A DNA stretch of 63,988 nucleotides, filler included, from Dimargaris cristalligena (lineage: Eukaryota), in NCBI GenBank assembly GCA_003614675.1. It is 6 parts of 6 records of this genome, joined end to end, with 100 filler letters (N's around TTAATTAATTAA, not from the genome) between each part and the next. Parts side by side here need not be neighbours in the genome. Positions count along the whole stretch, not along the records: positions 21,629 to 32,336 come from ML003163.1; 5 more parts are not named here. One strand, written 5' to 3'. The notes beneath the pieces are model-generated. The model did no database searches. It worked only from the letters and a program-made list of their open reading frames with translations, and was not told where the DNA came from. The position numbers and the translations under genes were made by a program. Every line of letters begins with the position of its first letter. Position 1 is the first letter of the stretch. This document shows positions 10,720-57,378 of this stretch, piece by piece.

Positions 10720-10819
10720 NNNNNNNNNNNNNNNNNNNNNNNNNNNNNNNNNNNNNNNNNNNNTTAATTAATTAANNNNNNNNNNNNNNNNNNNNNNNNN
10801 NNNNNNNNNNNNNNNNNNN
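10720..10819. other. Artificial contig linker (N44-TTAATTAATTAA-N44)
   Basis: 100-nt spacer with all-frame stop cassette; identical at five positions. Confidence 0.98.
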
Positions 10820-11130
10820 ATATACAGGGATAACTTTAGAGGGAGGTCCCAAGGGGAGGATATTACTAAGACTAAAGTAGAGGTAAATAAGCCAACTGGA
10901 CAGTTATGGGTATCCCAAAGACTCAGATGGTAAGTAAAAGAGTCTGATAGATCAGTGCTGGAGTAAATAGTGTAAATAAGTAGAGTCAAAAAGGTGAATA
11001 ATTATATAATAATGATAATCCTATAGTACTGGGTGTGGCTATGGGAAAGCTACTATGGCACTATAAGGCCTAATATAGTTAGATGTTGAATCTGGCTAGA
11101 TTAAGGAGTATTAGATAGTCTAATATATAT
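10820..11130 (-). mobile_element. Hypermutated LTR-like repeat, truncated at contig start; homologous to ~30378-30690
   Basis: TATACAGGGATAACTTTAGAGGGAGGTCCCAAGGGG...CTATAAGGCCTAATA aligns with TATGCAGGGAAAACTCCAGAGGGAGGCCCTAAGGG...CTATAAGGCCTAATA. Differences look largely like transitions. No CpG seen. Confidence 0.7.
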
Positions 11131-13203
11131 AGATATGTACTGAAGTCCCATAAAAAACATTTATTTACTTACTGTTACTTGTATTTTTTATCTACATTTA
11201 GAGTTTTTTTACATCCTTAAGCCAGTCTCACCTTACCCACAAGGCATAAGGCTCAGTACCCCCACATCCAGCAATTCCGACCTACTGGACGTGGAAATAC
11301 TTGCCGGTGGAGGGCCTACCTTTTCAATGGCATAGTATTCTAAAGAAGAGGCGAAGTTGCCCAGTATTAAGCACGTGTAACCTTACACAGCATGCCCTCT
11401 TCTAGGAGCCGCTGAGTCATTACTCACTACGCCTTTAAATTATATTGATGATCCTAAACACCTGGTCATATTGGAGGGCTATTGAACTGCGTGATTTATT
11501 GGATAGTACCCAAGGTGGGTTAGACGACCCGAGAAATTGGTACCTTTTAGGAAGCCCTGAGGATTGTGGCTTTATCGAACGTTCTTAATCCCAAAGTATA
11601 AAGTGCGGCTATAGTCGGTTACGCAAGAAACAATCCGGGAAAGAGGAAAACATGAGGGGGCGCCCCCAGGTGGTGGTTGATTTTTAGTAATAGGGGCCGT
11701 ACAAACTGACTTCAAATAGCAGAACAATAGTCCCCAATAGTGAAAGTATCCTGTTAGACGTGATATATTCCGACTTATACTTGTTATATTAACTATTTAG
11801 GGAGTTGGAGACTGGGTATAGACATACCGTTATGCTGTAGCTAACTGTAGTAATATACAGTGCAATATACTAGTTCGCTATAAAGTCACAGAATATAGCC
11901 ATTCTAAGTAGAAGTATCAATAGGATATTGCGAGTTGTAGCTAGGTTTGCTAAAGTAGCTTTCACCGGTTGGAGATCTCGAGAAGACCCAATTTGAAGGA
12001 TCGTTATATCCAGAGCTCTTCAGCTCAGTTGTACCACCCATCCGGTGAATAGAGTGTGAAGCTGAGGTACTCTGGAAGACTACTATTATTCCTTTTCGAG
12101 GGCATGCAATATATTTTTTGAGATCGCTTACTGAGAAGTACTGTATTAGTTTTGTTTCGGACCACGTCTGTACGCCAGCGAACCGTGGTAACTCCTACCC
12201 AATACACTATGGATATTGGAGGTATACAACCCTTAGAAAGCAGCGCCAATGGACTATCGGAAACATACAGTTTCCGGTAACGTATTCTTGAGTTAGTCGA
12301 GTATGTTCTAATCTTAGGCATTTAAAGGGGTTGCCTTTGGTCTAGACAAGCAGTGCGCCTCGTTGGTTGCAGGGTAGGTGTAATACTGGAAAACATCCTA
12401 GCACCAGCATCATCACTGATTCGTAAAACTATGCATCGGCCAACTTAGGAAGGTACCAGGCGATGTGTGAAAGGCATTGGGAGATAGAGAACCTTCAAAA
12501 GAATTTGACTTGTGCTTCCCAATGTACTGACCATTATAGAGCTACGGAGTCAGTATCACGGCACAAAATAGCACTAGTTAAATGCTGGCTATTTTATTAT
12601 TGCTGGTTCTGTGTGTAATCAATATTTCATGCCATGACCAACATACTGTCTATGACGACTCTGATACCTTCGCACTCCCTTTATCTTCTTCACACCCTTT
12701 ACCAGTCTCCCCGTCTGGGCCGCAATTTCCGATTTTAGCGCCTTGTTTTTCCCTGGCCCATTACCCATGGCCTTTATTAGCTGATACCTATTGGATTTAA
12801 AATGGAAGGTGGCACTAGGGCTCACCAAGTGGTTCGCTCTCTCGAGACCACCCAATATACGCCTCTGTAACATTTAAGCACTGTCTTGTACCGCAAGCTC
12901 CGTGAGTTTCTTTACAGCGTTTGTCATTGGAAAGGGAAACCTCGAGCTGTATATAGAGGCGGTTACTCGAATGGGCTGGCACGGTTGGGGGAAGGGTCAA
13001 GAGGGGAGGGGGCTCTCGGTTTTGAATAAAAGGCCCTAATCTAAGCCTAAATGTTTTACTGTCGCTGTATGCTATGCTCGTTTGCCACTAGTTGAACATC
13101 CTTAGCAGCCCACGCACCCCTGCATGGACTTGGGCCCAACCAACTTCCCCATTTAGTTTTTCTATTATTATATTTATTCACCCCTGCCCAACTATCCGAA
13201 AAC

Positions 13204-21528: not shown

Positions 21529-21628
21529 NNNNNNNNNNNNNNNNNNNNNNNNNNNNNNNNNNNNNNNNNNNNTTAATTAATTAANNNNNNNNNNNNNNNN
21601 NNNNNNNNNNNNNNNNNNNNNNNNNNNN
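21529..21628. other. Artificial contig linker
   Basis: N-TTAATTAATTAA-N, 100 nt. Confidence 0.98.
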
Positions 21629-27395: not shown

Positions 27396-28718
27396 ATAAT
27401 TTTTTATTGAACACAAATACTCCATCCATTAGACGGGCCGCCTCTATTTCATTATAGCATGCTTGACCTGTATTCAGGCTGCTATCTTACCATCTATTAT
27501 CATACCCCCCTTTTTAGACATTCTAATGAATAAATGCCTAATTGTATTGGTGATGAACAGATTAGAAGCCGCATTTTAATTATATAATGGTCGTGTAATG
27601 AATAGGGCTGAGACGACATCGTTCACAGGAGCTGGGTGGCCCTGTCAAATTCAAATGGTTCAGCGAACCATCATTCCCTGTAAAGTGCCTAATTCTGGCT
27701 TGTGAATTATGTACAATGTGATGAGAAAATACTAGACACCGCTCATTCTAAGCTGGCTTGGTATGATTCACACCATATTATATATTAGCCGGTGGAGCTG
27801 TATGGGTCAGATAGTGGGGGTGGCTCTTTTGAGTGAACTCGGCCGCAAATCTAAACCTGGGAGTGAGGGCGGGAATATTATAGCCAGGTCTGTCCAAATA
27901 GAGCTGAAATCTTACCTTTACATGTGAGTGGGGCTTAAACATGACTATATACAAAACAAGTGAATGGTATATGGAAAGATAGACAAGAACCTCATTTTAT
28001 TCCAGGCATATTTGACTCGTCAAGCGGACTTTGGCCATTCAGTCGGACCGAGCTCCTTCCATATCAAGCCATCAGTGAGCATCATAGAGTCACACGCATG
28101 GAGTACCATCTCTCTGCAATGGGCCACTAACAACTCATCATCCTTGGCCGCAGGCAGGAATACAGAGTTGATCGCCACTCACATTCTATCCCTCGCGAAT
28201 CAGAACATAATTATTCGCGGTGAAGGATACGAGCAGCAGGCAATCCACGGATTTGAAGACGACTCGAGGATTGGTTAACGCTCCTACTGTTACGTTTGGT
28301 CGTGGTGGACTAGTATTTAGGGGAGCCGAGTAGGGCGTAGGGTTTTTTAAGATATATATAGTTATTTTATTAGAACATAAAGAACCCACGTTATAGCGAG
28401 CTAATCCCTATTTTATACTCTGGGCACATTAGTATTGATGGTAAGTCTTGTAACTGTTCGCTCTCCGCTTGGCGGTGCGCTCTCACTGAGGGAGTCAGGT
28501 GACCACTCTAGTTCAGGGGGACCGATTCCCTCTGATGGTGGCACTACTGTGAGTCATGTACAATGCATAACAAATGGTATTTATCATGGATATATAAGAA
28601 CCGAAATACCAGCCTTATATTGCCAATCCAAGTGCCACTTCTCCTTACCTTATTCCAACTCGTGTTAAATCCGTGACCTACTAATTCTCGCCCATCGATT
28701 ATACTTCGGTGATTCACC

Positions 28719-29354
28719 ATGAAGCTTTCAGTTGCCGCCATCGTCCCCTTCATTCTGGTCGCAGCCGGTCCCGGCCGGGCCAGCTATACCCAAGACCAGC
28801 TAAACTGTACTCTGGAAAACGCGTGCATCAACGACCCGTACTTCTATCTGGATAAGTGTTTCGGTCTAACCAGCGACCAATACACCACGCTCACCGATGG
28901 CATCAATAAATGCGATACTCTCACTGACTCTAGCAAGCAGCAGTCCTGCTATGACGATAGTGAGAGCCAAGTTGAGGACTTGACGGGGGTGACACCGGAT
29001 GAACTTAACGAGATGGTTAATATCGGCATGGGAAAAGCAGCGTCGGAAAATATTAGCACTTCCTTGAACTCAAGCGTCAATAACCAAGCCACTTCGCCAT
29101 CAGTCGACTCGGGCAATACCACCAAGTCGGGGTCCAGCGCTGAGCCGACTGCCACTCAAACGGCCAGTGGGTCGTCGTCGTCCAGTCACGTGGTCTCGAG
29201 GTCGTCTGTGTCCAACCAATCGGCTACCCGATCTTCTTCAGCGAGCCAGACGGGTACTGACGATAGCGAGGACCAGTCCGGGGGTGCTGCTGCCCAAGCT
29301 ATGATGCCTGCTTTGTTGGTTTCGACTGCCATCCTATCCTATTATCTGCGATAG
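28719..29354 (+). CDS. Cys-domain GPI-type surface protein, paralog 4 (5 of 8 Cys retained)
   Basis: SYTQDQLNC start of domain; C3>Y, C5>G, C8>S; S/T linker; GPI-like tail. Confidence 0.9.
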   Translation: MKLSVAAIVPFILVAAGPGRASYTQDQLNCTLENACINDPYFYLDKCFGLTSDQYTTLTDGINKCDTLTDSSKQQSCYDDSESQVEDLTGVTPDELNEMVNIGMGKAASENISTSLNSSVNNQATSPSVDSGNTTKSGSSAEPTATQTASGSSSSSHVVSRSSVSNQSATRSSSASQTGTDDSEDQSGGAAAQAMMPALLVSTAILSYYLR

Positions 29355-30103
29355 TGGGTTGTACCATGCCTAGTTCCGCCACACCTCTAGCTATATGTAG
29401 ACTCCAACAGCCATAGTCCTTGTTGTTCATTATTTTTCAATCACTAGAATACGTGTTATCCCCCAATAAAATCATGTCTCTTGGAATAAAACATGAGACA
29501 TTTAGTCATCAATATTGCTTATTGCAGCTCCAATTAGAAGAGAGATATTCGACGTGTCTTGGTAACTCAGGGTAAGCCTCCAGCTAATATCATTTAAATG
29601 TATTATATGCTGCACCTTGTGTATATATGGGATTTATTGAGACCAATTTGGAACGTTCCCACAACCCTCACCCAAACTCCATTTTTGAGGCGCTGAAACG
29701 AAATTATGTGCTTTTGTAACAGTGTGGATTTATCGAGTTCAGGTGAGCAGTGTCCAACATTTTTTGGTTATCAACCATTTTATGGAATAGTAAGACAGAG
29801 CCCAAATAATGCTTCACTGACTTTTCTTTATTGGGGTTAACTAGAGCTAGACCTTTCTAGGTTTTTTTAAACTGCCAAGGGACAAGGAATAAGTTGGAAA
29901 ATTCTACAGTAAACAAATTTAAATATTGTCTACTACTGCACATTTTTATTTTTGGGGTGATGAGCAATTACTTCAAGTACCATTACATACTGTGTCCTCT
30001 AAATGTTTATGAGGTTCAGTATGGAAATTGCTAAATTTTTACCAAGCTGGAAAAAAAAATAGATAGTGAGATAACATCAGATTTTACATTACTGATTTCA
30101 TAA

Positions 30104-30694
30104 TGTTACCCAGGTTTACCACTCTTAATCTACCAAGAGTCCCGAGGATAGGCTTCTAATGGTAGATGGGGCTTAGGCTCAGCCAAGCAGGTCCCAAGAT
30201 TAGGTGGGGCACAGTACTAACCAATAAATTCTTAGGTAATCTGTTATGTAAGGGACATACAGCAGGCACACTTACTGGTCAGTATGAAGGGGTGAGTATA
30301 TATAGAGTTTATTGGGGTAAACTGGGGAGTAAGAATAAGCTAAGGCATCTAACCAGTCCCAAGGGGGCCTAGTTATATATATGCAGGGAAAACTCCAGAG
30401 GGAGGCCCTAAGGGAAGACTATGGGTAACTAAGGTATAAAGTGAGAATAGGCCAGCCAGATGACTACTAGTATCTGGAAGACTCTCATGGTAACCAGAAG
30501 AGTCTTTGGATCAGCATGTTGAGTGATTAGTGTAAAGAGCTGGAGTCCAGAAGGGGGAGGGTTATATGATATATGGTGATCCCATAGTACCAGGGGGTGA
30601 TTATGGGAAGGTTAATATGGTGCTATAAGGCCTAATAAGGGTAAACAATTGTAATGTCCAGATTAAGTCAGATTAGGGGGGCCAATATATAATA
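30104..30694 (-). mobile_element. Hypermutated solo LTR-like element
   Basis: One end is TGTTAC; the other is ATAATA, compatible with mutated GTAACA. Minus strand has TATATATAA (~30380) followed by AATAAA (~30310). Second copy at 10820-11130. No TSD recognised. Confidence 0.6.
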
Positions 30695-30894
30695 AAAATT
30701 ATCCTGAAAGCAGTTTATTATAGCAGTTCACATCCTTGGCTTGCTAAACCTATCCAAAATTTATTGGAATCCCATTAGTAGATTTAAGCTCACTATTTAA
30801 AATATGAACATCAAATGAAAATAAAAGCAATCAGATTTATCAATAGATGCGGGTGATATTGATTATGCCCATTTGATAACACTGGTGAGCTGGT

Positions 30895-31440
30895 TTAAGG
30901 ATGAAGCAATAGAGTGATACTGATTATTGCCATAGGCAGCACCATGATGGGAATATTAGTGCCCCCAGAGTTGAAGTCAAGACCTGAGGAGGATACTTCA
31001 TTACCCATGGGTGTGGCTGGCTTGGCTGGTTTTAAGTCAGTATCTATTGCAATAGAGTTGCCACCACCCAATGAGGGACCAGAGGTATTAGCCAATACTG
31101 TACCAGTTGCTTTCATTTTTGTCATGGCTGAAACAGATAAAGCTACACCTGGAACTTCAGTTTGGAGGGTAGTGATATCAATATTGAGAACCTCATAGAG
31201 GTCATTCAGACATTGCCGAAGGCAATTATGCTGGTCAATTAGGGAAGTCTTAAGCAAACACCCTTCACCACACCTGTTTTCCTGGTCCAGTTGATTAGCT
31301 GTGGCACCATAGCAGTTGACAAGGCATTTCTCAGAGTTGACTTCACAGTCAACCTTCTGAGCACATTGGGCCTACTCAAAAGTGAGGGCAGACATGGTAG
31401 TGAGGAAGGCCAAGAGGGTAATTAGCAATGCTGCCTTCAT
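30895..31440 (-). pseudogene. 8-Cys GPI-type surface protein, paralog 5, with premature stop
   Basis: MKAALLITLLAFLTTMSALTFE*AQCAQKVDCEVNSEKCLVNC...CGEGC...CLRQC...hydrophobic tail. TAG at 31374-31372 replaces the family-conserved Gln. Only one CpG seen in the gene. Confidence 0.88.
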
Positions 31441-32281
31441 AATTAAGCTATTCAGTGAGGGGATGGAAGGGAGTGCCAGAGGAAGGTGTGTGGTACAGGA
31501 AGGTGGCCACCAAGTTCAAAAAATAATGGAAAGTAAAGTAACTGTTGATGTTTAATCAGACTTGGGGGGTAAGGACTGGTCATTTTATTGGACTGGTTGA
31601 CCTACATGGCTATCACCATGGCTAAAAATGGATGAGAATGCTGAATGCCTCTTTAGCTGACCATACCAGTAGGCTACTGCAAAAAAAAACTCAAACTATT
31701 TGGGATTATCATGGTGGGATTCACCTCAGGCCTCATTTTACATTGTACTCCATTACATTAATCAGTACATTTTACCTACATAATGATGATAACAGTTTGC
31801 ACAGTGGTTTTTACCATTCTAGGTAGTATTGTGCATGGGGATCATAGGCCAACACTATAGTGTTCAAAGGGCATTACTTGCATCACTGGATTTAAAATAT
31901 GGGTAAAACTGAAGGGCAATCCCACTCCTGGACTAAAAGAAGCTGGAGGTGGTTGATGAAAACAACATATACACCATGTCCCACATTAGAAGTCTGCAGG
32001 GCCTTGAATTGCATCAAACTTGAAGTCCAGTTGAATATATCAGTATTGTATTTAGACTATATAACAGAGCATAATAAAAAAAATACATATACAGACTACA
32101 GAAATTCCTGGTGCAATTGATACTGACAATGTGAGAAGAAGGGCATTTCCCAAACGAATTTTTAATAATTGAATAATGTATGCAACTAAAATTCAATCCA
32201 AATGACCAAAAATAACAGCATCAACAAAAATCTGATATTAGACCACTATTGCCCAATAGTTTGACAAAAAAAAAAGTTAAG

Positions 32282-32336
32282 TGCCTATTTCCAGAATCGA
32301 ACTGAAGACCTTCTGCTTACTAGGCAGACACTCTGC
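32282..32336 (-). tRNA. tRNA-Thr(AGT), 3' part only (cut by contig end), possibly a pseudo-tRNA
   Basis: Minus strand: TCTGC-CTAGTAA-GCAGA anticodon arm, TTCAG-TTCGATT-CTGGA T arm, followed by a T10 run (32275-32266). Confidence 0.8.
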
Positions 32337-32436
32337 NNNNNNNNNNNNNNNNNNNNNNNNNNNNNNNNNNNNNNNNNNNNTTAATTAATTAANNNNNNNN
32401 NNNNNNNNNNNNNNNNNNNNNNNNNNNNNNNNNNNN
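32337..32436. other. Artificial contig linker
   Basis: N-TTAATTAATTAA-N, 100 nt. Confidence 0.98.
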
Positions 32437-43131: not shown

Positions 43132-43231
43132 NNNNNNNNNNNNNNNNNNNNNNNNNNNNNNNNNNNNNNNNNNNNTTAATTAATTAANNNNNNNNNNNNN
43201 NNNNNNNNNNNNNNNNNNNNNNNNNNNNNNN
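43132..43231. other. Artificial contig linker
   Basis: N-TTAATTAATTAA-N, 100 nt. Confidence 0.98.
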
Positions 43232-43304: not shown

Positions 43305-45819
43305 CAACGACGATATAATTTTTTTACACCCTTATATGCTGCCAATACCATTGCCCAACTCTATACTGGAAGCCCTTTATTAAGCGGATCGATCCACTTT
43401 TGTAATAACTACACCACTCTCTCAGTGACGCTCGCTGATCTGCCACATTGTCTGGGTTCATGAGTAGGGCCTCAAATGAACCAGTTCAATGTTACGTAAT
43501 GTATATTACCAATCAGTTATTTGAAAATGGGTATAGGATTATGTGCGTGGTTTAATCGACTCTATCGCCAAAGTGTAAGCATTGATGCGTAAAATCACCT
43601 AACCAGAATAATTATGGTCTTTAACATAGCAGTATTCCCCTGGACCCTGACAACAAGTATTGGCTGGAATCTAACCAGGATTCATTCCACAGTACCCTGA
43701 CCAGCTAAACCCGAGCGCCAACAGCTCTCGCTTCCCCTGAGCCTCTTCGGGCAAAACACGGCAGCAATCAACAGGGGCATCATACTGAGACTTGACTGTT
43801 ATATTGCGCGGCCATCGGAGACCCTGCCCACAATTAATAATATAATTGTGACCTTTGTATATCATGAACTTATATTGATATATCACCTCTTGATGTATCA
43901 CCAGCGGGATATTTCTTGCATTACAGGGTTAGCGCGAGGTGAAACTCGACACGATTTGCCCAATAATTTTATGCGAGTTTGTCTAAATTCCACTCCCTCC
44001 CCGCTTGCTAGACTATCATCAGGTTCCCCGACCGTCGACCAAGACTAGCGTGATGTATCTTGATGGCTAAGTATTAGGATTCGGTGTCGATTGGATGAAT
44101 TGGGAAGCACCACCCTAGTCACACCACCTCTGCCTGTAGCTGGATAATGAGGCCAGTTTTGCCTCTTTTCACAAATGTTTGAGCCTGCCCAATCATGGTT
44201 GAAATTTAGATGGTCCATTCGGCGGAGTTGATCCATCCAAAGGAACCGATGTAATCTTTGCCGACAAAGAAAGAGAGCCGTCAATGGATCCACCACAGCG
44301 CTGCTCTTTCCCCCAGTCCCTTCCCTCCTTCCGCCCCCGCCTTTTGGTGGTCCTCTTTAATACTGGTTCAGCTGGCCATGGCATTGCCCATCAGGTAGTT
44401 AGGTGGGTTGGTTAGTTGGTGGGCGCTATTTTCGGACACTATGGAGTGTGACCACCATTTCTGACTCTTAAATTACCTATTGGTTTACATTATGATATTC
44501 AAAGTCTGCCCAGCGGCTATTAATATCCGCGAATGATATGTAGGGGGGGTTAAGGGTGTTCAAGAAAGGGTATTTTCTATGGGCACCCGTCCCTCGTCCT
44601 TGCCCGCCACCTCCCTCTTTCTTGACCACAGCAAAGACCAAGGTGCTGCGTATCAATTCCAATTGAGGGAGTTGTCAGCCCTGATCTATGCTTCCGTTTC
44701 CACCACTGCCACCACCACCGGGAGAACTATATAGGTTCTCCTCCCTGCTCACTCCATAACACGGTTTATTTTGCTCCCTGGGCGTATACAATCGAATCCC
44801 GGTATTTTATTTATTTATTTGTGTTATCCTCTGCTTTTTAATACAATTCTCTATTCCAACTGAACCTGCCTCGTTATTACCCTCCCTACCTCGTTTATAA
44901 TTAATATTTTCGATAATTCACCCTAAAAGTTTACGTGCCTCCTAGTACCGAGCCCCTTTTTAGTATTATATATCACTGGAGTGCGACCATTTTCTCCTTC
45001 CGTTTTAATTGCATAGGAAGGCCCGGCCTATCTAAATTTGCTTGTTACCAATAGTGCCATCTAGGAAACTCTTACCCCTCTTAGTTTGCACCATTCCTGG
45101 ATTTCTAGTACATTAGTTTACTCGTCATCTGACTGTTGTTCGCCCGGCTTCATAACTGAGCAGTGCCCTATTGGAGAGCACCGAAAACTATTTGTTTACA
45201 GAGTGTGTCACTTCTCTGCATCGATTCGCTAGCTGTAGCCTAACAACGCCGTAATCAGTCAACGTTGCCCGCCCAACCCCTGAGTGAATGGTAGGATATT
45301 AGTCTTTTATAATCGATTGATGAACCCTGTTCGAAACCTTGCCCCCTATTTTAACAGCCCCTTAATATGGGTGTAAACCGTGGGGTATAAATCTTTAACC
45401 CGCGCGCCTTCGCTGTAGGCCATGCTCTCTTTTGTCTCGACTTGCTTCGTTAACACTTCGTTGAGCTACGTTAGTGCTAAGATCCCAATCTAACCCTTTC
45501 ATTTATCTAGTGTTCTTTAACTCAATTGATACGGCCGGCTATTAGGATCAACCGGCGATCGGTCCACATTCATATTGGCTCGCTCACCACACCGTAGTAT
45601 CTTAGCATCACCTTGCTTTCCCTACTTTGCCTACACCAATCCTTTTGGAGTATCCTACCTTTTATCCCACTACCCACCCCCTCCTTCGATCGCCCCCACA
45701 GACCGCTTCCCTGTTCTCTGAGCAGTCGATTTGGGCTACTTCATTGGTGGGCTTTTGACGTTCATCCCCCCACCCCTTCATTTTCCAACGAAGTCGCATA
45801 TTCGGGGTCGTTTATAATA

Positions 45820-48800
45820 ATGACCTGCCATACTTACGCCCCACCTGTCCGATCGTGCAGCATGAATGGCGGTGCTCCAGACCTCTACAACCGGAGGCAC
45901 GGCCAAGATAACCGGGCATCGAATATCGCGGAGCTAGATTTAAGTGAAAATCTCCGGTCGGCCAATATAACCGGGGGTATTATATCCGCCTGGGGTTGGA
46001 AAACCTCCCTCTTCAACTTTTATAAACGGCCGATTGCCGCAGTGGTCCCGACCGTCACCTTCCAGGTGTACCCGGACTTTGAATCGTGTGTCAGCCTTGC
46101 CTATCCCCTGGAACGGCGGGTTGTGGCGACCATAGTGCAGCCCACCGATGGCGGCCAATCCCTTGGCGGCTCCAGCGGGAGTGACAGCGACCGCGATACA
46201 GGAGCGGCCTTTATCCCTTCGCACCGAGGGTCCCTAGTGACCGCCGCTGCTATCCGGCCAACCATATCCTCTGGCCTGCCACCATCTCGGAACGGGAGGA
46301 CCCTCCAGGTCAGCCTGGAAGAGTGGCTACTGAGTGAAGGAGTCAACCAACCGCCTCCGCCGCGGTTGCGCGGCTCTATAAAATGGTACAACCCCCACAG
46401 TTGTCAATGGCAAACGAAAATAGTGATTTTACAACGCGACACGCTCACCTGCCAGGACTTTGTGCATAGGACCCGAGCGAGGAGGCGCCAACCCAAAGCT
46501 CTACTAGTCTCCCCAACGGACGAGCCCCGTAACCGTAGTAAGGGGGCCCGAATCATGCGGCTATTCCACAAAGAAGCAGGTCAACAAGCCCAACCACTCC
46601 CGCCATCCCCATTATCACCACCAACACCACTACGGCTCCGGCGTCTACGACGACTATCATCCCAGCTACCTCATCAGGCGGCTTCGCCTTCTCTTCCTTC
46701 GGCTTCATTTAATCCAACCAAGAAGCGCGGCGGCGGCGGAGAAGAAGTTGACAAAAAAAAGAATCCCCCACTAGACTCTTCACTGGGTTCCCAGTCCCCC
46801 GACGACTCCAGTACTACTACTACCGCCTCATCATTATCCTCCCCATCCCCGCCCCTACTACTTCAGGACCGTGGCCCTCGGCGGACTATAAAGACCCGTG
46901 GTGGCCCGCCTGGTCCACGCGGCGGTCCTGGCATTCCTTTTCCTTCGGCCGATTCTCTTGCTTCGCCATCAGCAGCTAATATTCGCAATTCTCCTTCTTC
47001 TCTAAATTCTTCAACTACGGACTTGGATCGTTCGGCCACTTCCCCACTTTGGGTCATCCATCTTACGATGATCAAGTCCCTTTCGTTCTTACCTGACGAG
47101 GGGGGACCCCCGCCTTCTTCCAAGGCAACCACCACCACCACTACTAGTCCCAAATCCCGCACCAACCCATATACTATTGATATTGCCACAACGGATGGGC
47201 GGACCGTATCTTTGGCCACCAAAACGAAAGCGCAGCAGCTTAAATGGGTGGTGGCCATTATTTCCAATTGGGACACTTATTTTAAGCTCCGCATGGACCT
47301 GCAGGCCGCCATGCCCGCTTCATTGGACGAAGAGCTCGCCCCCCTCGACCTAGCCCATGTTGCCCCCCGCGCGCCTGCCCAACCCCTACAAGGTCTACTG
47401 GGCGAATTACCGGTAGTCCACGATGCTCACGACATGGCTAATTCGACCCCCTTTCCCTTGCAGAGAGTTTCTTCGCCCACTGCTACGGGTTCAGCCGAAA
47501 TGGCCCATCCCGGCCCATTGAACCTCTCATTCAGCAATATGTGGCGGGAACTGGTCATTGACTCCATCCTTGCGGAAAGTTGTGTACGTATAACCTCGGC
47601 CTGTCCCATGAAGCGCCAAAAACGAGTGGAGGGTAGTAGTAGTGACCACCACCTGTCCTCCCCCGCCACCCTCCAGTTGGAGTCAAAAGGTCCCGTGACC
47701 CATAACAATTCAGAATCAGCCCTCAGGGCCCCGACTGAGGGGTCCAAGCCAGTTTCACTATTTCCTATTTCTGCACCCTCCATTTTACCCAACGCCGTTA
47801 ACGACGACGACCACCACCACCACCATCAATCCCTACGTCTGCAGTCATTTTGCGATCCCTCGGATGTCGTGGATATGTATGAGTTGTTGGGCGTTCCCTC
47901 TCCTGCTTTGTGCCATGAACCCTCCACTCTTTTGGCCTCCTCCAGCTCACCTAACGAACTGTTTGCCTTGGAAGGCCGTCGTTCCGTTCGGCAGGCCCGT
48001 CGTATGAGTCTCCCGGCGGCCGCCCTCGACCCCCTCTTTGAAACGGTGGCCCATGTTACCAAAGATGAGGATGACGACCACCCTAGTCTAAACGACTCTG
48101 AGACAATGCCACGGGCAGACTATACGACCCGTAAATATCCCGTCGGGGCGATTAGTTCTAGCTCCGCCGCTAAGTATGCCGGCGGTCCCCCGGTGACGTT
48201 GGCGGACCTACCCGAAAACGAACTAGTGTACCAGGACATTGTCGTGGATGACGACCTCACTATAACACTACCTTCGCCCATTGATACCTCATTCGCCCAC
48301 CAGGCAGTCACTCGCGGTCCGGCGTCGGCCCGCCCCGCCCTTTCGCGGGATGTGAAACTTCGTACCAAGCGACAGTTCTCTTTACCGGACCGCGGGACGC
48401 CCTTCATTATCCCCATTCTAAAACATTGGGGACCAAGTCTCGACAACTCCGAGGACGGCCACGACCTGCCTTCTCTCGTGGGGGACCTGGAGGGCGAGAC
48501 CCCCACGGCCCTCCAGCATTGCGAAATCGATGACCTGCCGCTCATCCCGAACGGATTTGCCCAGTTCCGCCAGCCTGACGGGAAGGAAGAGGGGGACGAG
48601 GGAAGCTTGGATTGGCGTAACCGGCGCATTCTGGATTGGCAACGGGAGGCCCAGAATCAGACAACTCCCCAACAGTACGCCAACCATTTGGTGCCGACTA
48701 ATAAGGTCGGCGGCCCCAACCCTTTGGACGCCTACCGGGTCATGGTACCGGACTTTCGCGCGATTTATAAAAGTCGACTGGAACACAACCTTAACAACTC

Positions 48801-49776
48801 GCATCGCATCGGAAGCGGCGGTAGCAATGGGAGCCCCCAATACCAGTCGGGTCCCACCACCCACGGAACCCCCGCCCACTTGCGCAAGGGCAGCTACACC
48901 CATTCCGGACCTAAGCCCAACGGCGGCCTTATATCCCGGGTACCGGGTAAGCCCCCGTGTGGTAAAGCCAACGTAGACATACCGGTTATGAACCGGAATG
49001 GAACTTTAGCCCGTGGCCCACCCGGCCCAACCAAACGCCGCCCGGCTAAGCCGTTGCAGTTGGACATGGACTCGCTGAAACAACAGTACCCCACCCCGCG
49101 CTCGTCCGCGCGTAACTCGTACCCGAGTGTCATGTCGCCGCTTTCGTCCATGTTAGAGGGGGGTCTCCATATATCTAACTTATCCTCGGCTTCACCACGC
49201 GGTTCCACCCCCCATTCGCCCCAACGGGGGGGAGTCCGGCCGAGACGGTCGACCGACCCCAAATCGGCCTACTCTGAACGATCGCCAGCGCTGTCGAACC
49301 CGAAAGCTAACCCGGGTCTGCCACGTAGTCCAGGTCGGGAAAGTCCTTTCCGGCCCGTTCAGCCTAGCCCTATACGCAATTCGGTTCGCCCGTTGAGCCC
49401 TCGGACTATAAAACAGTATAATCAGTCGGGAGGAAACCCGACTAACCATCATCACCAGCGCCAGCACCCCCGCCACCAACCCTTGTCTTCATCGGTTGCC
49501 AGCTCGAACCAGGTGTCCGGTATGGCCCAACCCCACAGTCCCCGCTGGTCCGCACCCCAGCAATCCCCGCGGGAGACCATGCACCCGGAGCACTACCATT
49601 CCTATAAAATGCTGTCGGGTCGGGCCGCGGGCGCGGGCGCTACTAGTCATTACCCAAATAATCACCACTTCTCACTTCAGATGTGCTGTGTTGTCGCCCT
49701 GCCCCATTCGTACATACTACTTCAACCTATCTTTAAGCCGCTCCCAATACCTTGCCCCCCTCTCTGTTTTCAATAA
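45820..49776 (+). CDS. Large Pro/Ser-rich, largely disordered protein with a probable split PH domain
   Basis: Open frame of about 4 kb; first in-frame ATG at 45820. RLRGSIKWY...WQTKIVILQRDTLTC and LWVIHL...YTIDIATTDGRTVSLATKTKAQQLKWVVAI resemble PH-domain halves. Ends uncertain. Confidence 0.7.
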   Translation: MTCHTYAPPVRSCSMNGGAPDLYNRRHGQDNRASNIAELDLSENLRSANITGGIISAWGWKTSLFNFYKRPIAAVVPTVTFQVYPDFESCVSLAYPLERRVVATIVQPTDGGQSLGGSSGSDSDRDTGAAFIPSHRGSLVTAAAIRPTISSGLPPSRNGRTLQVSLEEWLLSEGVNQPPPPRLRGSIKWYNPHSCQWQTKIVILQRDTLTCQDFVHRTRARRRQPKALLVSPTDEPRNRSKGARIMRLFHKEAGQQAQPLPPSPLSPPTPLRLRRLRRLSSQLPHQAASPSLPSASFNPTKKRGGGGEEVDKKKNPPLDSSLGSQSPDDSSTTTTASSLSSPSPPLLLQDRGPRRTIKTRGGPPGPRGGPGIPFPSADSLASPSAANIRNSPSSLNSSTTDLDRSATSPLWVIHLTMIKSLSFLPDEGGPPPSSKATTTTTTSPKSRTNPYTIDIATTDGRTVSLATKTKAQQLKWVVAIISNWDTYFKLRMDLQAAMPASLDEELAPLDLAHVAPRAPAQPLQGLLGELPVVHDAHDMANSTPFPLQRVSSPTATGSAEMAHPGPLNLSFSNMWRELVIDSILAESCVRITSACPMKRQKRVEGSSSDHHLSSPATLQLESKGPVTHNNSESALRAPTEGSKPVSLFPISAPSILPNAVNDDDHHHHHQSLRLQSFCDPSDVVDMYELLGVPSPALCHEPSTLLASSSSPNELFALEGRRSVRQARRMSLPAAALDPLFETVAHVTKDEDDDHPSLNDSETMPRADYTTRKYPVGAISSSSAAKYAGGPPVTLADLPENELVYQDIVVDDDLTITLPSPIDTSFAHQAVTRGPASARPALSRDVKLRTKRQFSLPDRGTPFIIPILKHWGPSLDNSEDGHDLPSLVGDLEGETPTALQHCEIDDLPLIPNGFAQFRQPDGKEEGDEGSLDWRNRRILDWQREAQNQTTPQQYANHLVPTNKVGGPNPLDAYRVMVPDFRAIYKSRLEHNLNNSHRIGSGGSNGSPQYQSGPTTHGTPAHLRKGSYTHSGPKPNGGLISRVPGKPPCGKANVDIPVMNRNGTLARGPPGPTKRRPAKPLQLDMDSLKQQYPTPRSSARNSYPSVMSPLSSMLEGGLHISNLSSASPRGSTPHSPQRGGVRPRRSTDPKSAYSERSPALSNPKANPGLPRSPGRESPFRPVQPSPIRNSVRPLSPRTIKQYNQSGGNPTNHHHQRQHPRHQPLSSSVASSNQVSGMAQPHSPRWSAPQQSPRETMHPEHYHSYKMLSGRAAGAGATSHYPNNHHFSLQMCCVVALPHSYILLQPIFKPLPIPCPPLCFQ

Positions 49777-53896: not shown

Positions 53897-53996
53897 NNNN
53901 NNNNNNNNNNNNNNNNNNNNNNNNNNNNNNNNNNNNNNNNTTAATTAATTAANNNNNNNNNNNNNNNNNNNNNNNNNNNNNNNNNNNNNNNNNNNN
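53897..53996. other. Artificial contig linker
   Basis: N-TTAATTAATTAA-N, 100 nt. Confidence 0.98.
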
Positions 53997-54099: not shown

Positions 54100-56806
54100 C
54101 ATACCTGTGGCAATTTAAGGGGACACTTCACCTTGCCACACCGCTGCCCTTCTAGCCCCATTCTATGCCCTTACTGGACTTCACCGATTAACAAAGAAAC
54201 ACTTAGCTGATCTTGAACCCTATTGGGTTAGCTTGAAAAAGGCCCTCCTAGACACCAAATACCTATACGAGCCACAACCAGGGGAACCCCTTACCCTACG
54301 GGTCGATGCAGCAGAGGCTGGAGTTGGAGCAGTACTACTTGCCCATCCAGATGGACAATCTGATCGTGTAGTTGCCTACTTCAGTAAGGCCTTCGATGGG
54401 CAGCAGGGCCGACGACATCCTGGGTTCCGTGAAGCCTGGGGACTAGTTCGAGCAGTCCGACATTTCTACACCTACTTAGATGGTGTGGCTAACCTCCGAG
54501 TAGAAGTTGACGCCACTATAGCCTTGGGACTTTTCAACCATAAAGATACATGCCAAGGTGACGAACTTGCGGGTTTCCGTGCCGAGTTAGCCAAAATGGG
54601 AATCCATTCTCATATGATATATCATCGACCAGGTGAGACTCATCTTACAGCAGATTGGTTATCTCGAGCTCTCCATCGCCAGAGACCCCGTAAATCAACC
54701 CAACCTACCGTAGCCACCATTGCCGCTATAGAGACTACCACCGATACTACTGAGAGTAGTGATGAAGGTGAGGCGATGCATATTTCTCTCTCTTCAGATG
54801 AGGAAGAGGATTGTGACCCTGATCCTAATATCACTAAATGTCCTGGTGAGCTAACAATTATGGCTGCCCTCCCCACCACCTGGAGCTGGACAATATCCCC
54901 TGAAGACCAAAGGAATGATACTCAACTGGCTAGTTGGCTCAAACTCTGCCAGCATCGTGACGATGAGATTGGTAGGGATGATCCCCTATTCACTGAGGTT
55001 AATGGGCTGTCTATCCATAATGGACTTCTCTGCCAAATAGCCCCCGGCTCCTTAGTTGGTACTATGGGGAGCTGGGTACCCTTAGCCCCCACAACTATAA
55101 TGAAGGAGGCCATTAAACAATGGCATATCGAACTGTGCCACCCAGGGCAGGAGCGGCTCTTAGCATTTGCCCAGTCACGCCTAGCCCATCCAGCTCTACG
55201 GGAAACCATTGACCGTTTTACCAGAACCTGTCACGTCTGCCAGATGAATGCTATTTCCACGATTCGTAATACTCCCCAGTCAACCACCTATGGGGACCGG
55301 GACCCAGGTGAACACCTTTACCTAGATATTGGCTATATTGGTCAGGTCGGGCCTGATGAGGAAACCCAGTTCCTCATTATTGCAGATGCTACTAGTCGGT
55401 TTTATCAGGCAATACCACTTATCCAATCCACTGCCCTAGACATTGTGGAAGGCCTACGCGATGGCTGGATTGGGACCTATGGAAAACCACGGATGATTAC
55501 AACCGATAATGGCCCCCAGTTTACTGCAGACACCCTCAGAAGCTACCTAGAAGGCCAAGGGATCCAGCATATATTTTCCTCCCGAAGCCACCCTATCTCT
55601 GAACTAGCAGAACGATATGTAGGTCTACTGAAAAACTCCTTAAGGAAATGTTGGAGCCAATACGGTACCTCTGATGGATGGACATGCTATCTTCCCAAAA
55701 TCACCGCAGCACATGCTATTATCCCTGACCCACATACTGGTATCACCCCTTGGTCAGCCCTTAATGGCATTACCTCCACAGTTAACCCATCATGTTTTAT
55801 CCTACACCCAGATATGGAAGGAGGAGTAGAAGAAGCGGCCCAGTGGGCCATTAACCAAGCAAAGGAACGCCGATCCCGAGTGCGTAAATTAGCCATGGAG
55901 CGGTATAACCAACATGTGACAAGAAGAAGATATCTCCCGGGAGAACTAGTCACAGTCAAAGTTGTACCAAAACCTACTAATTTAGCAAGCCAGCCAGAGA
56001 GAAGAACCGGGCCATTCCGCGTCTTGGAGAGGGCTGGCCTAGCCTACCGACTAACTGATCTGGAGGGTAACCCCCTACCCCGAACAACTCATGGGGGCCT
56101 CCTCCTACCCTATTACACTCGGGAAGATGAGTGGACTGACAATGCACCGACAACTACTGATATTCTAACCCACTCATTACCTATTAACCTTGCGACCTTC
56201 AGTGGGAATAACCCCAATTCAATAGACGATTATTCGAATGATGAATTCCGGGCCAGGTCAGAATACAGAGAAATCTCTCTACCAGAAGAAACACATCACC
56301 CGCCGGAAGAGTCATTGGAAGAGAATAGCAGTGATGAAGGCAGTCAGGACGAAAGCCACTATTGGTCATCATCTGAGTATGAGCCCGAACCCAATAACCA
56401 AACCAGCGACTCCCTGATCCACCCATCATCAGATTCGCCAGTCCTGGGCACTAAACGGCAAGCCTCCTGCTCCCCCCGACCAACAGGCATCACCCAAGTA
56501 GGAAACAAACGATTATGCGACCTACCAAGCCCTACTCTATTAGCATTTCCTCAGCTCCGGGAGAAGTCAAGTCAAGGTATCCAAGAACTAGAAACAAGGA
56601 ACTCTGAGGACGAGGAGTCGCCCTGGAGTATTGTGCAACCAAGGGGAAACTCCGACCTGAATAATCAGGAGGACGACCGAACCAATCATACCCCCCTTCA
56701 GGAGGATAACCCACCGATGTACATGGGAGTCCAATCTATCCCCCTAATGGAGGAGGACGACCCTCTCTCGTCGACACAAGAACTACACCCCGCCCCAGAG
56801 GGATAA
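54100..56806 (+). mobile_element. Ty3/gypsy-type pol fragment (RT connection, RNase H, integrase, acidic tail)
   Basis: AALLAPFYALT; RNase H RVDAAEAGVGAVL...VAYFSK...ADWLSR; HHCC zinc finger (HIELCHPG...CHVC); DDE core (YLDIG, TTDNGPQF, ELAERY); GPF motif (TGPFRVL). RH-before-IN order is Ty3-like. Confidence 0.92.
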
Positions 56807-57303
56807 AACTAGCCACCCGCCCAGCGGACCAGGATTCTATGTCTTTAAATAAAATACTATTATTTACTAATACGCCTACAGTTATTTCGCATCTACCCCG
56901 CTCCACTCAGCGCCGTCTTCTTCACTCTTCATCCTGCCCTACTCGGCACTAGGTTACAGTATTACCACCCTACCTACCATGTTAAACCGTCAATGCGAAA
57001 TTATTGGCTGGCTCTTCCTCATTGGCGTTCAAACACTGTGGCGCATTGCTTTACCCCCACTGGTTAGTTAAACTGTGGGCAAACGCCAATAATAATCCAC
57101 TGAATAAGGTGGTAACACAAATGGTGATACTTATTCAATAATATCGTATTAATTTTTATAATCATTTCAAAGGGCTATAATTGATGGTTAGAGGTCAAAA
57201 TAAAGCTTGGTTGTTTTGAATGTATATATTAAGCCCAACTTTTAAAGGGAAGATTGCCGGAAAAATTTGGATTAAAATTTACACAAGAAAATCCTAACAT
57301 GAA

Positions 57304-57376
57304 GCCCGGTTAGCTCAATCGGTAGAGCGTGAGACTCTTAATCTCAAGGTTGCGGGTTCGACCCCCGCATTGGGCT
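57304..57376 (+). tRNA. tRNA-Lys(CTT)
   Basis: Full 73-nt cloverleaf: GCCCGGT/ATTGGGC acceptor stem, TGAGA-CTCTTAA-TCTCA anticodon arm, GGTTCGA T loop; no intron. Confidence 0.97.
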
Positions 57377-57378
57377 TC

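Follow-up and report, generated by a model that had tools for sequence, protein, structure and literature searches.

Organisation of the locus

Dimargaris cristalligena (Zoopagomycota, Kickxellomycotina) is a haustorial parasite of Mucorales, and the 63,988 nt of its draft assembly GCA_003614675.1 analysed here, hereafter the window, consist of six draft contigs sorted by length (10719, 10709, 10708, 10695, 10665 and 9992 bp) joined by artificial linkers (N44-TTAATTAATTAA-N44) at 10720–10819, 21529–21628, 32337–32436, 43132–43231 and 53897–53996; all positions given are coordinates of this joined stretch. The subject of this study is a CpG-poor domain at 29735–32336, which forms the right end of the third contig (21629–32336) and whose limit at 32336 is an assembly break and not a biological one. 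The domain holds a high-copy dispersed repeat of ~0.6 kb (30104–30694), a pseudogene on the minus strand for a cysteine-rich protein (30898–31440, hereafter paralog 5) and the 3′ part of a tRNA-Thr gene (32282–32336, minus strand), with single-copy DNA between them. To its left lies a tandem array of CpG-normal paralogs on the plus strand, recognised from their open reading frames (ORFs) and alignment, which served as the comparison set: P1 (21812–22294), P2 (24355–25005), P3 (26826–27395) and P4 (28719–29354).

The window was cross-checked against contigs from four public sequencing runs (X1, X3, X4 and X5), representing four samples from two studies, with the source data of the window itself possibly among them. 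Single-copy status was judged from run contigs matching at ≥88% identity, and word depth is one figure per run contig. D. cristalligena is probably non-haploid, and the genome published for it is a co-assembly of amplified single cells (PMC6784888, PMC10386755; papers are cited here and below for the passages drawn on).

CpG loss in the domain

The domain contains exactly five CpGs, at 30143, 30850, 31217, 32155 and 32298, in agreement with the preliminary description, which had counted about five in 2.6 kb by eye. From the base composition of the domain and the window background of observed over expected CpG (o/e, 0.835), 82.9 would be expected (Poisson P(X≤5) = 3.4e-29), and the poorest of 855 control windows of 2602 bp taken elsewhere in the window still has 69. 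This corresponds to a CpG o/e of 0.05 in the domain, versus 0.84 in the window background. The loss is not an effect of composition, because GpC is normal (o/e 0.99). The GC content of the domain is still 0.39. The 77.9 missing CpGs are matched by a surplus of 77.0 TpG and CpA dinucleotides, which indicates that the CpGs were lost through C-to-T transitions on one strand or the other. From background to CpG-poor DNA, the density of ACG fell from 9.9 to 0.2 per kb, of CCG from 13.6 to 0.6, of GCG from 10.2 to 0.2 and of TCG from 12.8 to 1.0; as the loss is saturated, with all four NCG contexts >92% gone, a preference for TCG is not visible.

The last normal CpG is located at 29734, which places a sharp left edge at 29734/29735, and the 500-bp bins across 30001–32000 hold 1, 1, 1 and 0 CpGs, without a gradient. 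Such a level profile over 1.6 kb, with an abrupt stop on the left, looks like an equilibrium reached in a bounded domain, rather than leakage fading with distance. The depletion extends into single-copy DNA on both sides of the repeat, over 369 bp on the left side and 1.6 kb on the right, each represented by one contig per run. The left flank (29735–30103) has no CpG versus 8.1 expected, with a TG+CA excess of 7.9; the spacer that separates the repeat from the 3′ end of paralog 5 (30695–30897, one contig) has one CpG versus 5.0 expected from base composition; and the DNA upstream of paralog 5 (31441–32281) has one versus 28.6 expected, with a TG+CA o/e of 1.41. Nucleation by a transposable element with spread over 1–2 kb had been proposed earlier, and of this proposal the link to a repeat and the reach into single-copy DNA are retained, while the flat profile does not fit a graded spread.

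Run contigs from all four runs bridge the boundary at 29735 with 0–2 differences (X1 28516–30163, X3 28514–30132 and X4 28516–30163, without difference; X5 28517–30000, with two), thus ruling out a chimeric join. In two runs part of the domain is covered at about half the depth of the neighbouring contigs (X5 over 30809–32311, word depth 156.9 versus 324.6; X4 over 31614–32311, 138.6 versus 350.7), and no second allele at ≥88% identity was found over these parts. The half depth may reflect hemizygosity in a non-haploid fungus, but it is a single value for each run contig.

Paralog 5 and its family

Paralog 5 comprises 180 codons and a stop codon, with a signal-peptide-like start, eight cysteines that all align with those of the family, and a hydrophobic, glycosylphosphatidylinositol (GPI)-anchor-like tail. 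As stated in the preliminary description, the frame and cysteines are intact and the gene is interrupted by a single in-frame TAG, which lies at codon 23 (31373–31375, minus strand) where five homologues (P1–P4 and the D. cristalligena protein P0127) have glutamine. The TAG is covered without any difference by contigs of X1, X3 and X4, with one unplaced difference in 1503 bp in X5, and with three of the four runs in full agreement a consensus error can be dismissed. It represents a change from CAG to TAG, a C-to-T transition at a CpA and not at a CpG. The coding sequence of paralog 5 has one CpG, versus 36–45 in each of P1–P4 (o/e 0.85–1.03), so that the domain does adjoin CpG-rich paralogs as had been noted. 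The GC content at third codon positions is 0.44 in paralog 5 versus 0.62–0.70 in P1–P4, and 0.46 versus 0.48–0.54 at first and second positions combined.

A full HMMER scan of 1.84 billion protein representatives with the N-terminal domains of the family detected 17 family proteins at E≤0.001. Of the ten whose source was looked up, seven belong to D. cristalligena and the other three to D. xerosporica, Dispira simplex and Tieghemiomyces parasiticus (one each), and on this evidence the predicted secreted eight-cysteine family is specific to Dimargaritales. Paralog 5 is most similar to P0127, encoded on another contig of D. cristalligena, with 31% identity over 193 columns (E=6e-30) and 43 of 94 residues matching in the cysteine domain, as counted from the alignment. 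Since even this relative is only 31% identical, paralog 5 is an old member of the family and not a recent copy; P1–P4 are distant paralogs of it (22–29% identity). A word-index protein search with paralog 5, with the TAG as X, gave 82 candidates but none at E≤0.01, and the same type of search with the five-paralog alignment gave at least two matches, both from D. cristalligena, which has no bearing on the range of the family.

UniRef labels relatives of the family as CFEM proteins, and the Pfam CFEM model (PF05730) matched none of 19 family members at E≤1. The predicted model of P1 is all-helical, with a predicted local distance difference test score (pLDDT) of 77–89 over residues 21–100, and neither Foldseek (at E≤0.001) nor VIA (best Z-score 4.7) gave a significant match for it. 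For P4 the best score in a protein atlas was 0.89 to CFEM-like names, which is a lead only, and all structure rows had template modelling (TM) scores <0.3.

Three features of the array itself were recorded. In P4 only five of the eight family cysteines are present, and Y, G and S occupy the aligned columns of the other three; its ORF is otherwise intact and CpG-normal. Over the 5′ half of P3 (26597–27183), contigs of X1 and X3 carry a version that differs at 69–81 positions in 484 bp and then cannot be aligned across a gap, and are near-identical to the window from 27183 on; the D. cristalligena proteins P0125 and P0126 resemble P3. The divergent version must be a second haplotype that has diverged strongly, or else a paralog. 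Finally, one 18-kb contig of another D. cristalligena assembly encodes a 99% identical P1 followed, by locus tag, by three further family members (the proteins of this group are P0123, P0128, P0130 and P0131). With P1 directly followed by three family members there, the tandem array probably has at least three more genes to the left of the third contig, with paralog 5 at its other edge.

Repeats and other CpG-poor stretches

The repeat at 30104–30694 has one CpG versus 21.5 expected, and its summed contig word depth is 34,000–226,000 versus 140–350 in its flanks (four runs). Between 935 and 2023 contig pieces per run matched the 5.8-kb stretch that holds it, most of them 90–99% alike, and at a site where this copy reads CCAG, the loose-end consensus of other copies reads CCGG. 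It had been described as a long terminal repeat (LTR)-like relic. A genuine high-copy repeat is present, which begins with TGTTAC and has a CA near 30685, as checked for a solo LTR, but no target-site duplication, second LTR, internal region or terminal direct repeats were found in 29700–32336, and it has no similarity to the Ty3/gypsy element of the sixth contig. Tandem Repeats Finder returned no rows for the domain. A 15-nt motif of the repeat occurred at 119 loci in metagenome contigs, none of which aligned to the domain at E≤1e-3, and these were rejected as chance matches.

A second copy of the repeat, 69–72% identical, opens the second contig (10820–11144), with the similarity stopping near 30692. 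This copy, too, is devoid of CpG, as are the 133 bp beyond it. In both (30104–30694; 10820–11277) TpA/ApT is 1.33–1.35 and there is no TpG/CpA surplus, unlike in their flanks, and TATATA motifs are common to the two copies, which are 30% diverged. The shared motifs suggest that this composition is native, though an older episode of C-to-T change in all contexts within the repeat family is conceivable.

The CpG-poor DNA of the window is confined to four stretches, with nine residual CpGs in 5275 bp, and all four abut contig ends. Assemblies break on repeats, hence contig ends point to repeated DNA. One of these stretches (1–1538) contains a gene on the plus strand for a protein with an RNA recognition motif (RRM), with exon 1 at 552–669, an intron with GTAAGT...CACAG splice sites at 670–833 and exon 2 at 834–967; it has a single CpG with ORF and intron intact, so genes can apparently sit unbroken in such DNA, although this one may be either functional or freshly dead. 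No other Pfam match was found among the short ORFs of the CpG-poor stretches. The RRM protein has H and C at positions that are usually basic (LHQ, CSCGFGF). This R-to-C/H, T-to-M look was considered as proof of decay and rejected, since the first position of the RNP-1 motif is K, N or R among RRMs of solved structure.

Two further repeats were detected. A short high-copy repeat lies at ~28317–28516, just upstream of P4, with a summed depth of 1,200–43,000 versus ~300 beside it. The sixth contig opens inside a Ty3/gypsy pol gene (54119–56806) with RNase H and integrase in an 895-aa open frame and a CpG o/e of 0.52. A tRNA-Lys(CTT) gene (57303–57378) is located ~500 bp past the end of this pol gene, and together with the tRNA-Thr at 32282 hints that repeats may sit near tRNA genes in this genome. 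A 1392-aa open frame on the plus strand (45598–49776), in GC-rich DNA (0.55–0.59), gave no Pfam match at E≤0.001. The first contig includes an ORF for a Lys-tRNA synthetase, with 100% identity over the aligned 65% to a protein recorded for D. cristalligena.

The tRNA gene at the contig end

The sequence at 32282–32336 (minus strand) matched Rfam RF00005 with 33.3 bits (gathering threshold 29) over model positions 18–71 of 71, and its anticodon loop CUAGUAA identifies it as tRNA-Thr(AGU). The tRNA-Thr placed in the domain by the preliminary description is therefore genuine, although only its 3′ 55 nt are present, with the 5′ side cut by the contig end; ARAGORN made no tRNA call at 32282–32336. 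The stems of the fragment look sound and the CpG of the T-loop is kept. All run contigs stop inside it at 32310/32311, and the depth rises there in two of the four runs (X1 and X5), as expected for a multi-copy gene. The tRNA gene may be a border of the domain instead of a part of it.

Tempo and mode of decay

The preliminary description had taken the near-complete CpG loss without indels as a sign of fast, targeted mutation rather than slow decay. Neutral decay of P1–P4 was simulated until ≤1 CpG was left, assuming 0.05–0.10 indels per substitution. A sequence with at most one stop and no frameshift resulted in 0.03–0.4% of cases when CpG mutability was 10× background, in 1.5–7% at 20×, in 12–29% at 40× and in 34–52% at 80×. 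Under a simple model, the residual CpG density implies CpG transitions at ≥~27× the mean site rate, and at ~27–40× an intact frame is unremarkable, so that no burst is required. The 895-aa pol frame of the gypsy element, still open at an o/e of 0.52, also fits a gradual process.

The ratio of synonymous-type products (T|G across codons, xCA) to non-synonymous-type products (C|A, xTG) is 42:37 in paralog 5 versus 94:161 in P1–P4. This enrichment suggests that part of the CpG decay of paralog 5 took place under selection on the encoded protein. Together with the simulations at 20–40×, it leaves the fast, targeted mode unsupported.

Repeat-induced point mutation (RIP) is recognised by a high TpA/ApT ratio and by a (CpA+TpG)/(ApC+GpT) ratio of at most about 1.03. 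The respective values are 0.95 and 1.38 for the domain and 0.79 and 1.57 for its right flank, neither of which has the RIP pattern, and there is no TpA surplus in the flanks; the RIP-like activity suggested earlier is not supported there. Only the repeat core reaches these approximate thresholds (1.33 and 1.05, with 1.35 and 0.86 in the copy of the second contig). While the repeat part of the domain is duplicated, no duplicated target for RIP was found for the part with paralog 5 at ≥88% identity in any of the four runs.

Origin of the CpG-poor domain

Taken together, we consider the domain to be probably the footprint of long-standing CpG methylation over silent, repeat-associated DNA that includes single-copy sequence and an old, broken gene. 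The CpG cytosines of such a domain would have been methylated for a long time, and deamination of 5-methylcytosine (5mC) would have replaced almost all CpGs by TpG or CpA. Besides the high-copy repeat, such a domain would span the single-copy DNA flanking it, ≥0.37 kb to the left and ≥1.6 kb to the right, where it reaches the tRNA gene at the contig end. Paralog 5, as an old family member inside the domain, would have lost its CpGs largely at synonymous positions, and would then have been inactivated, or would already have been so, by an ordinary non-CpG nonsense mutation from CAG to TAG. Cytosine methylation as the cause, the repeat as nucleator and this order of events are what we infer from the observed CpG loss with its TpG and CpA products, the repeat, its single-copy flanks, and a pseudogene with no twin.

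Several observations weigh against the methylation footprint in this form. The repeat at 30104–30694 does not itself show a TpG/CpA excess (−3.3), and because of this and of the TATATA motifs shared with the second copy its CpG-poverty could be native. The contig ends at the tRNA-Thr gene and the sequence beyond is not seen, so the repeat may not be the nucleator. The short repeat upstream of P4 is CpG-normal (o/e 0.80 over 28255–28644), so that repetition by itself brings no CpG loss at this locus. Nor is spreading of the depletion general, because CpG is at a normal level on either side of the gypsy element (o/e 0.80–0.82) and the spread beside the repeat copy in the second contig is at most 133 bp. 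The enrichment of synonymous-type products (odds ratio 1.94, P=0.013) has distant paralogs of 22–29% identity as its baseline, and is a weak test.

Among the alternatives, an active CpG-aimed process resembling RIP or methylation induced premeiotically (MIP), which within one or a few sexual cycles mutated the repeat, leaked over 1–2 kb of flanking single-copy DNA and quickly killed paralog 5, would account for a near-total CpG loss that left the frame intact, without indels and with one stop, an outcome that is rare in the simulations at 10× mutability (0.03–0.4%). Computational RIP-like signals have been reported in Entomophthorales, which are also Zoopagomycota, although RIP is described as experimentally shown only in Dikarya in the same source (PMC11105155, as far as drawn on here). 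The repeat core of both copies reaches the index thresholds, but its TATATA motifs are common to copies 30% diverged and look native, and the classical indices fail in the flanks (ratio 1.57). The depletion keeps the same level across 1.6 kb, with an abrupt edge and no gradient from the repeat, the nonsense change is not at a CpG, synonymous-type products are enriched in paralog 5, and the gypsy element is only half depleted with its pol frame still open. We consider such a process unlikely. An appreciably less probable alternative is that the CpG-poor state belongs to a larger compartment, such as a methylated or otherwise CpG-mutable region at the edge of the array or near a centromere or telomere, which was not nucleated by the repeat and in which genes persist for long. 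The CpG-poor stretch at 1–1538, with its open two-exon RRM gene and one CpG, fits such a compartment, as does a right flank of 1.6 kb that far exceeds the 133-bp spread beside the other repeat copy, on a contig that stops before a right edge becomes visible. Every CpG-poor stretch of the window is nevertheless at a contig end, which points to repeats, and only 369 bp separate the left edge of the domain from its repeat.

A recent segmental duplication of paralog 5, named in the preliminary description as an alternative trigger, could have set off duplication-dependent mutation, in which case an unmutated twin might be found. No direct support for it was found beyond a family that is multi-copy and tandem. 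Twins differing only at CpGs would be ≥~93% alike, and the bins over 30790–32154 are at the depth of one contig in all four runs, with no twin at ≥88% identity; the closest of the 17 family representatives is 31% identical. We consider this trigger very improbable. An artefact, whether from consensus errors, a chimeric contig or foreign DNA (host or contaminant), would come to mind for a domain at a contig end in a genome obtained from amplified single cells that had been grown with the host fungus (PMC6784888). It is scarcely credible given that contigs of four runs from two studies bridge the boundary at 29735 and cover paralog 5 with 0–2 differences, that the family of paralog 5 was found only in Dimargaritales, and that the repeat recurs beside normal DNA in the second contig.

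Implications

Cytosine methylation is considered marginal in Zoopagomycota. If the split between o/e 0.84 and 0.05 were confirmed genome-wide, it would constitute sequence-level evidence for strong repeat-targeted cytosine methylation in Dimargaritales. Silent chromatin could then be mapped from sequence alone in a hard-to-culture organism, and such a map would show whether these domains swallow genes of the secreted eight-cysteine family of Dimargaritales.

A bolder possibility, which we put forward tentatively and hold to be rather doubtful, is that Dimargaris runs a domain-wide, CpG-directed mutator that spreads over kilobases from repeats into single-copy genes. Such a mutator could be methylation combined with very high deamination or poor repair (≥~27× background), or a true RIP-like enzyme. 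If it exists, it would act on genes for lineage-specific secreted cysteine-rich proteins in a parasite of fungi, where the edge of their tandem array would be eroded or diversified, and would represent a mechanism for a 'two-speed genome' outside Dikarya. That such activity prunes effector-type genes, as had been proposed, is not supported here: paralog 5 is a single case, and a second gene, that for the RRM protein, has its ORF and intron intact in another CpG-poor stretch.

For Dimargaris, our literature search yielded no paper that deals with methylation, CpG depletion or RIP, and none joining Dimargaris with DNA methyltransferases (DNMTs), although supplementary tables of surveys may list the DNMTs of the species. 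Similarly, it found no paper describing CpG depletion in Zoopagomycota, and returned only general reviews, a survey of CDCA7 and DNMTs, and the RIP-like signals in Entomophthorales.

Comparison with known systems

In Leptosphaeria, RIP has reportedly leaked into genes beside repeats, and this was the analogy drawn in the preliminary description. RIP beside pathogenicity genes has been described in ascomycete plant pathogens (PMC12543289), and the domain shares with such leakage a single-copy gene for a secreted protein by a repeat, many transitions, a premature stop and the absence of indels. Ascomycete RIP mainly affects CpA, produces AT-rich isochores, and needs a duplicate and RID, whereas in the domain only CpG is affected, the (CpA+TpG)/(ApC+GpT) ratio is 1.38–1.57, GC is 0.39, and the stop is the sole CpA-type event that can be named. 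The analogy with RIP near pathogenicity genes is thus one of function only.

A closer likeness is found in transposons of Microbotryum, Tuber and rusts, where a C-to-T bias with a CpG signature has been ascribed to deamination of 5mC and to enzymes of the Masc2/DNMT1 type (PMC4352252). Shared features, within the part of that source drawn on, are the restriction of the bias to CpG, repeated DNA as the sequence hit, and no change from CpA to TpA in affected unique DNA. The Dimargaris domain differs in belonging to a member of Zoopagomycota, in a saturated depletion (o/e 0.05), in including at least 2 kb of single-copy DNA with a gene, and, with its loss of all NCG contexts saturated, in having no visible preference for TCG.

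In Phycomyces, 5mC marks repeats, and in methylating Basidiomycota the genes that flank transposons are silenced (PMC13297926). The domain resembles these systems in being repeat-centred, in the CG context and in affecting neighbouring genes (PMC13297926, PMC7862722), but unlike them it is known from its mutational footprint alone. The same chemistry and the same excess of TpG and CpA are seen in methylated vertebrate DNA and in old transposon copies (PMC12582260, PMC13297926). Vertebrate genomes are depleted overall and contain CpG islands, in contrast to the bimodal pattern seen here, in which sharp depleted islands (o/e 0.05) lie in a background of 0.84. Within Kickxellomycotina, Coemansia and Linderina carry CDCA7F, which nearly always co-occurs with DNMT1 (PMC10538959). 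Footprints of this kind are known, and the one at this locus comes from a lineage that has received little study.

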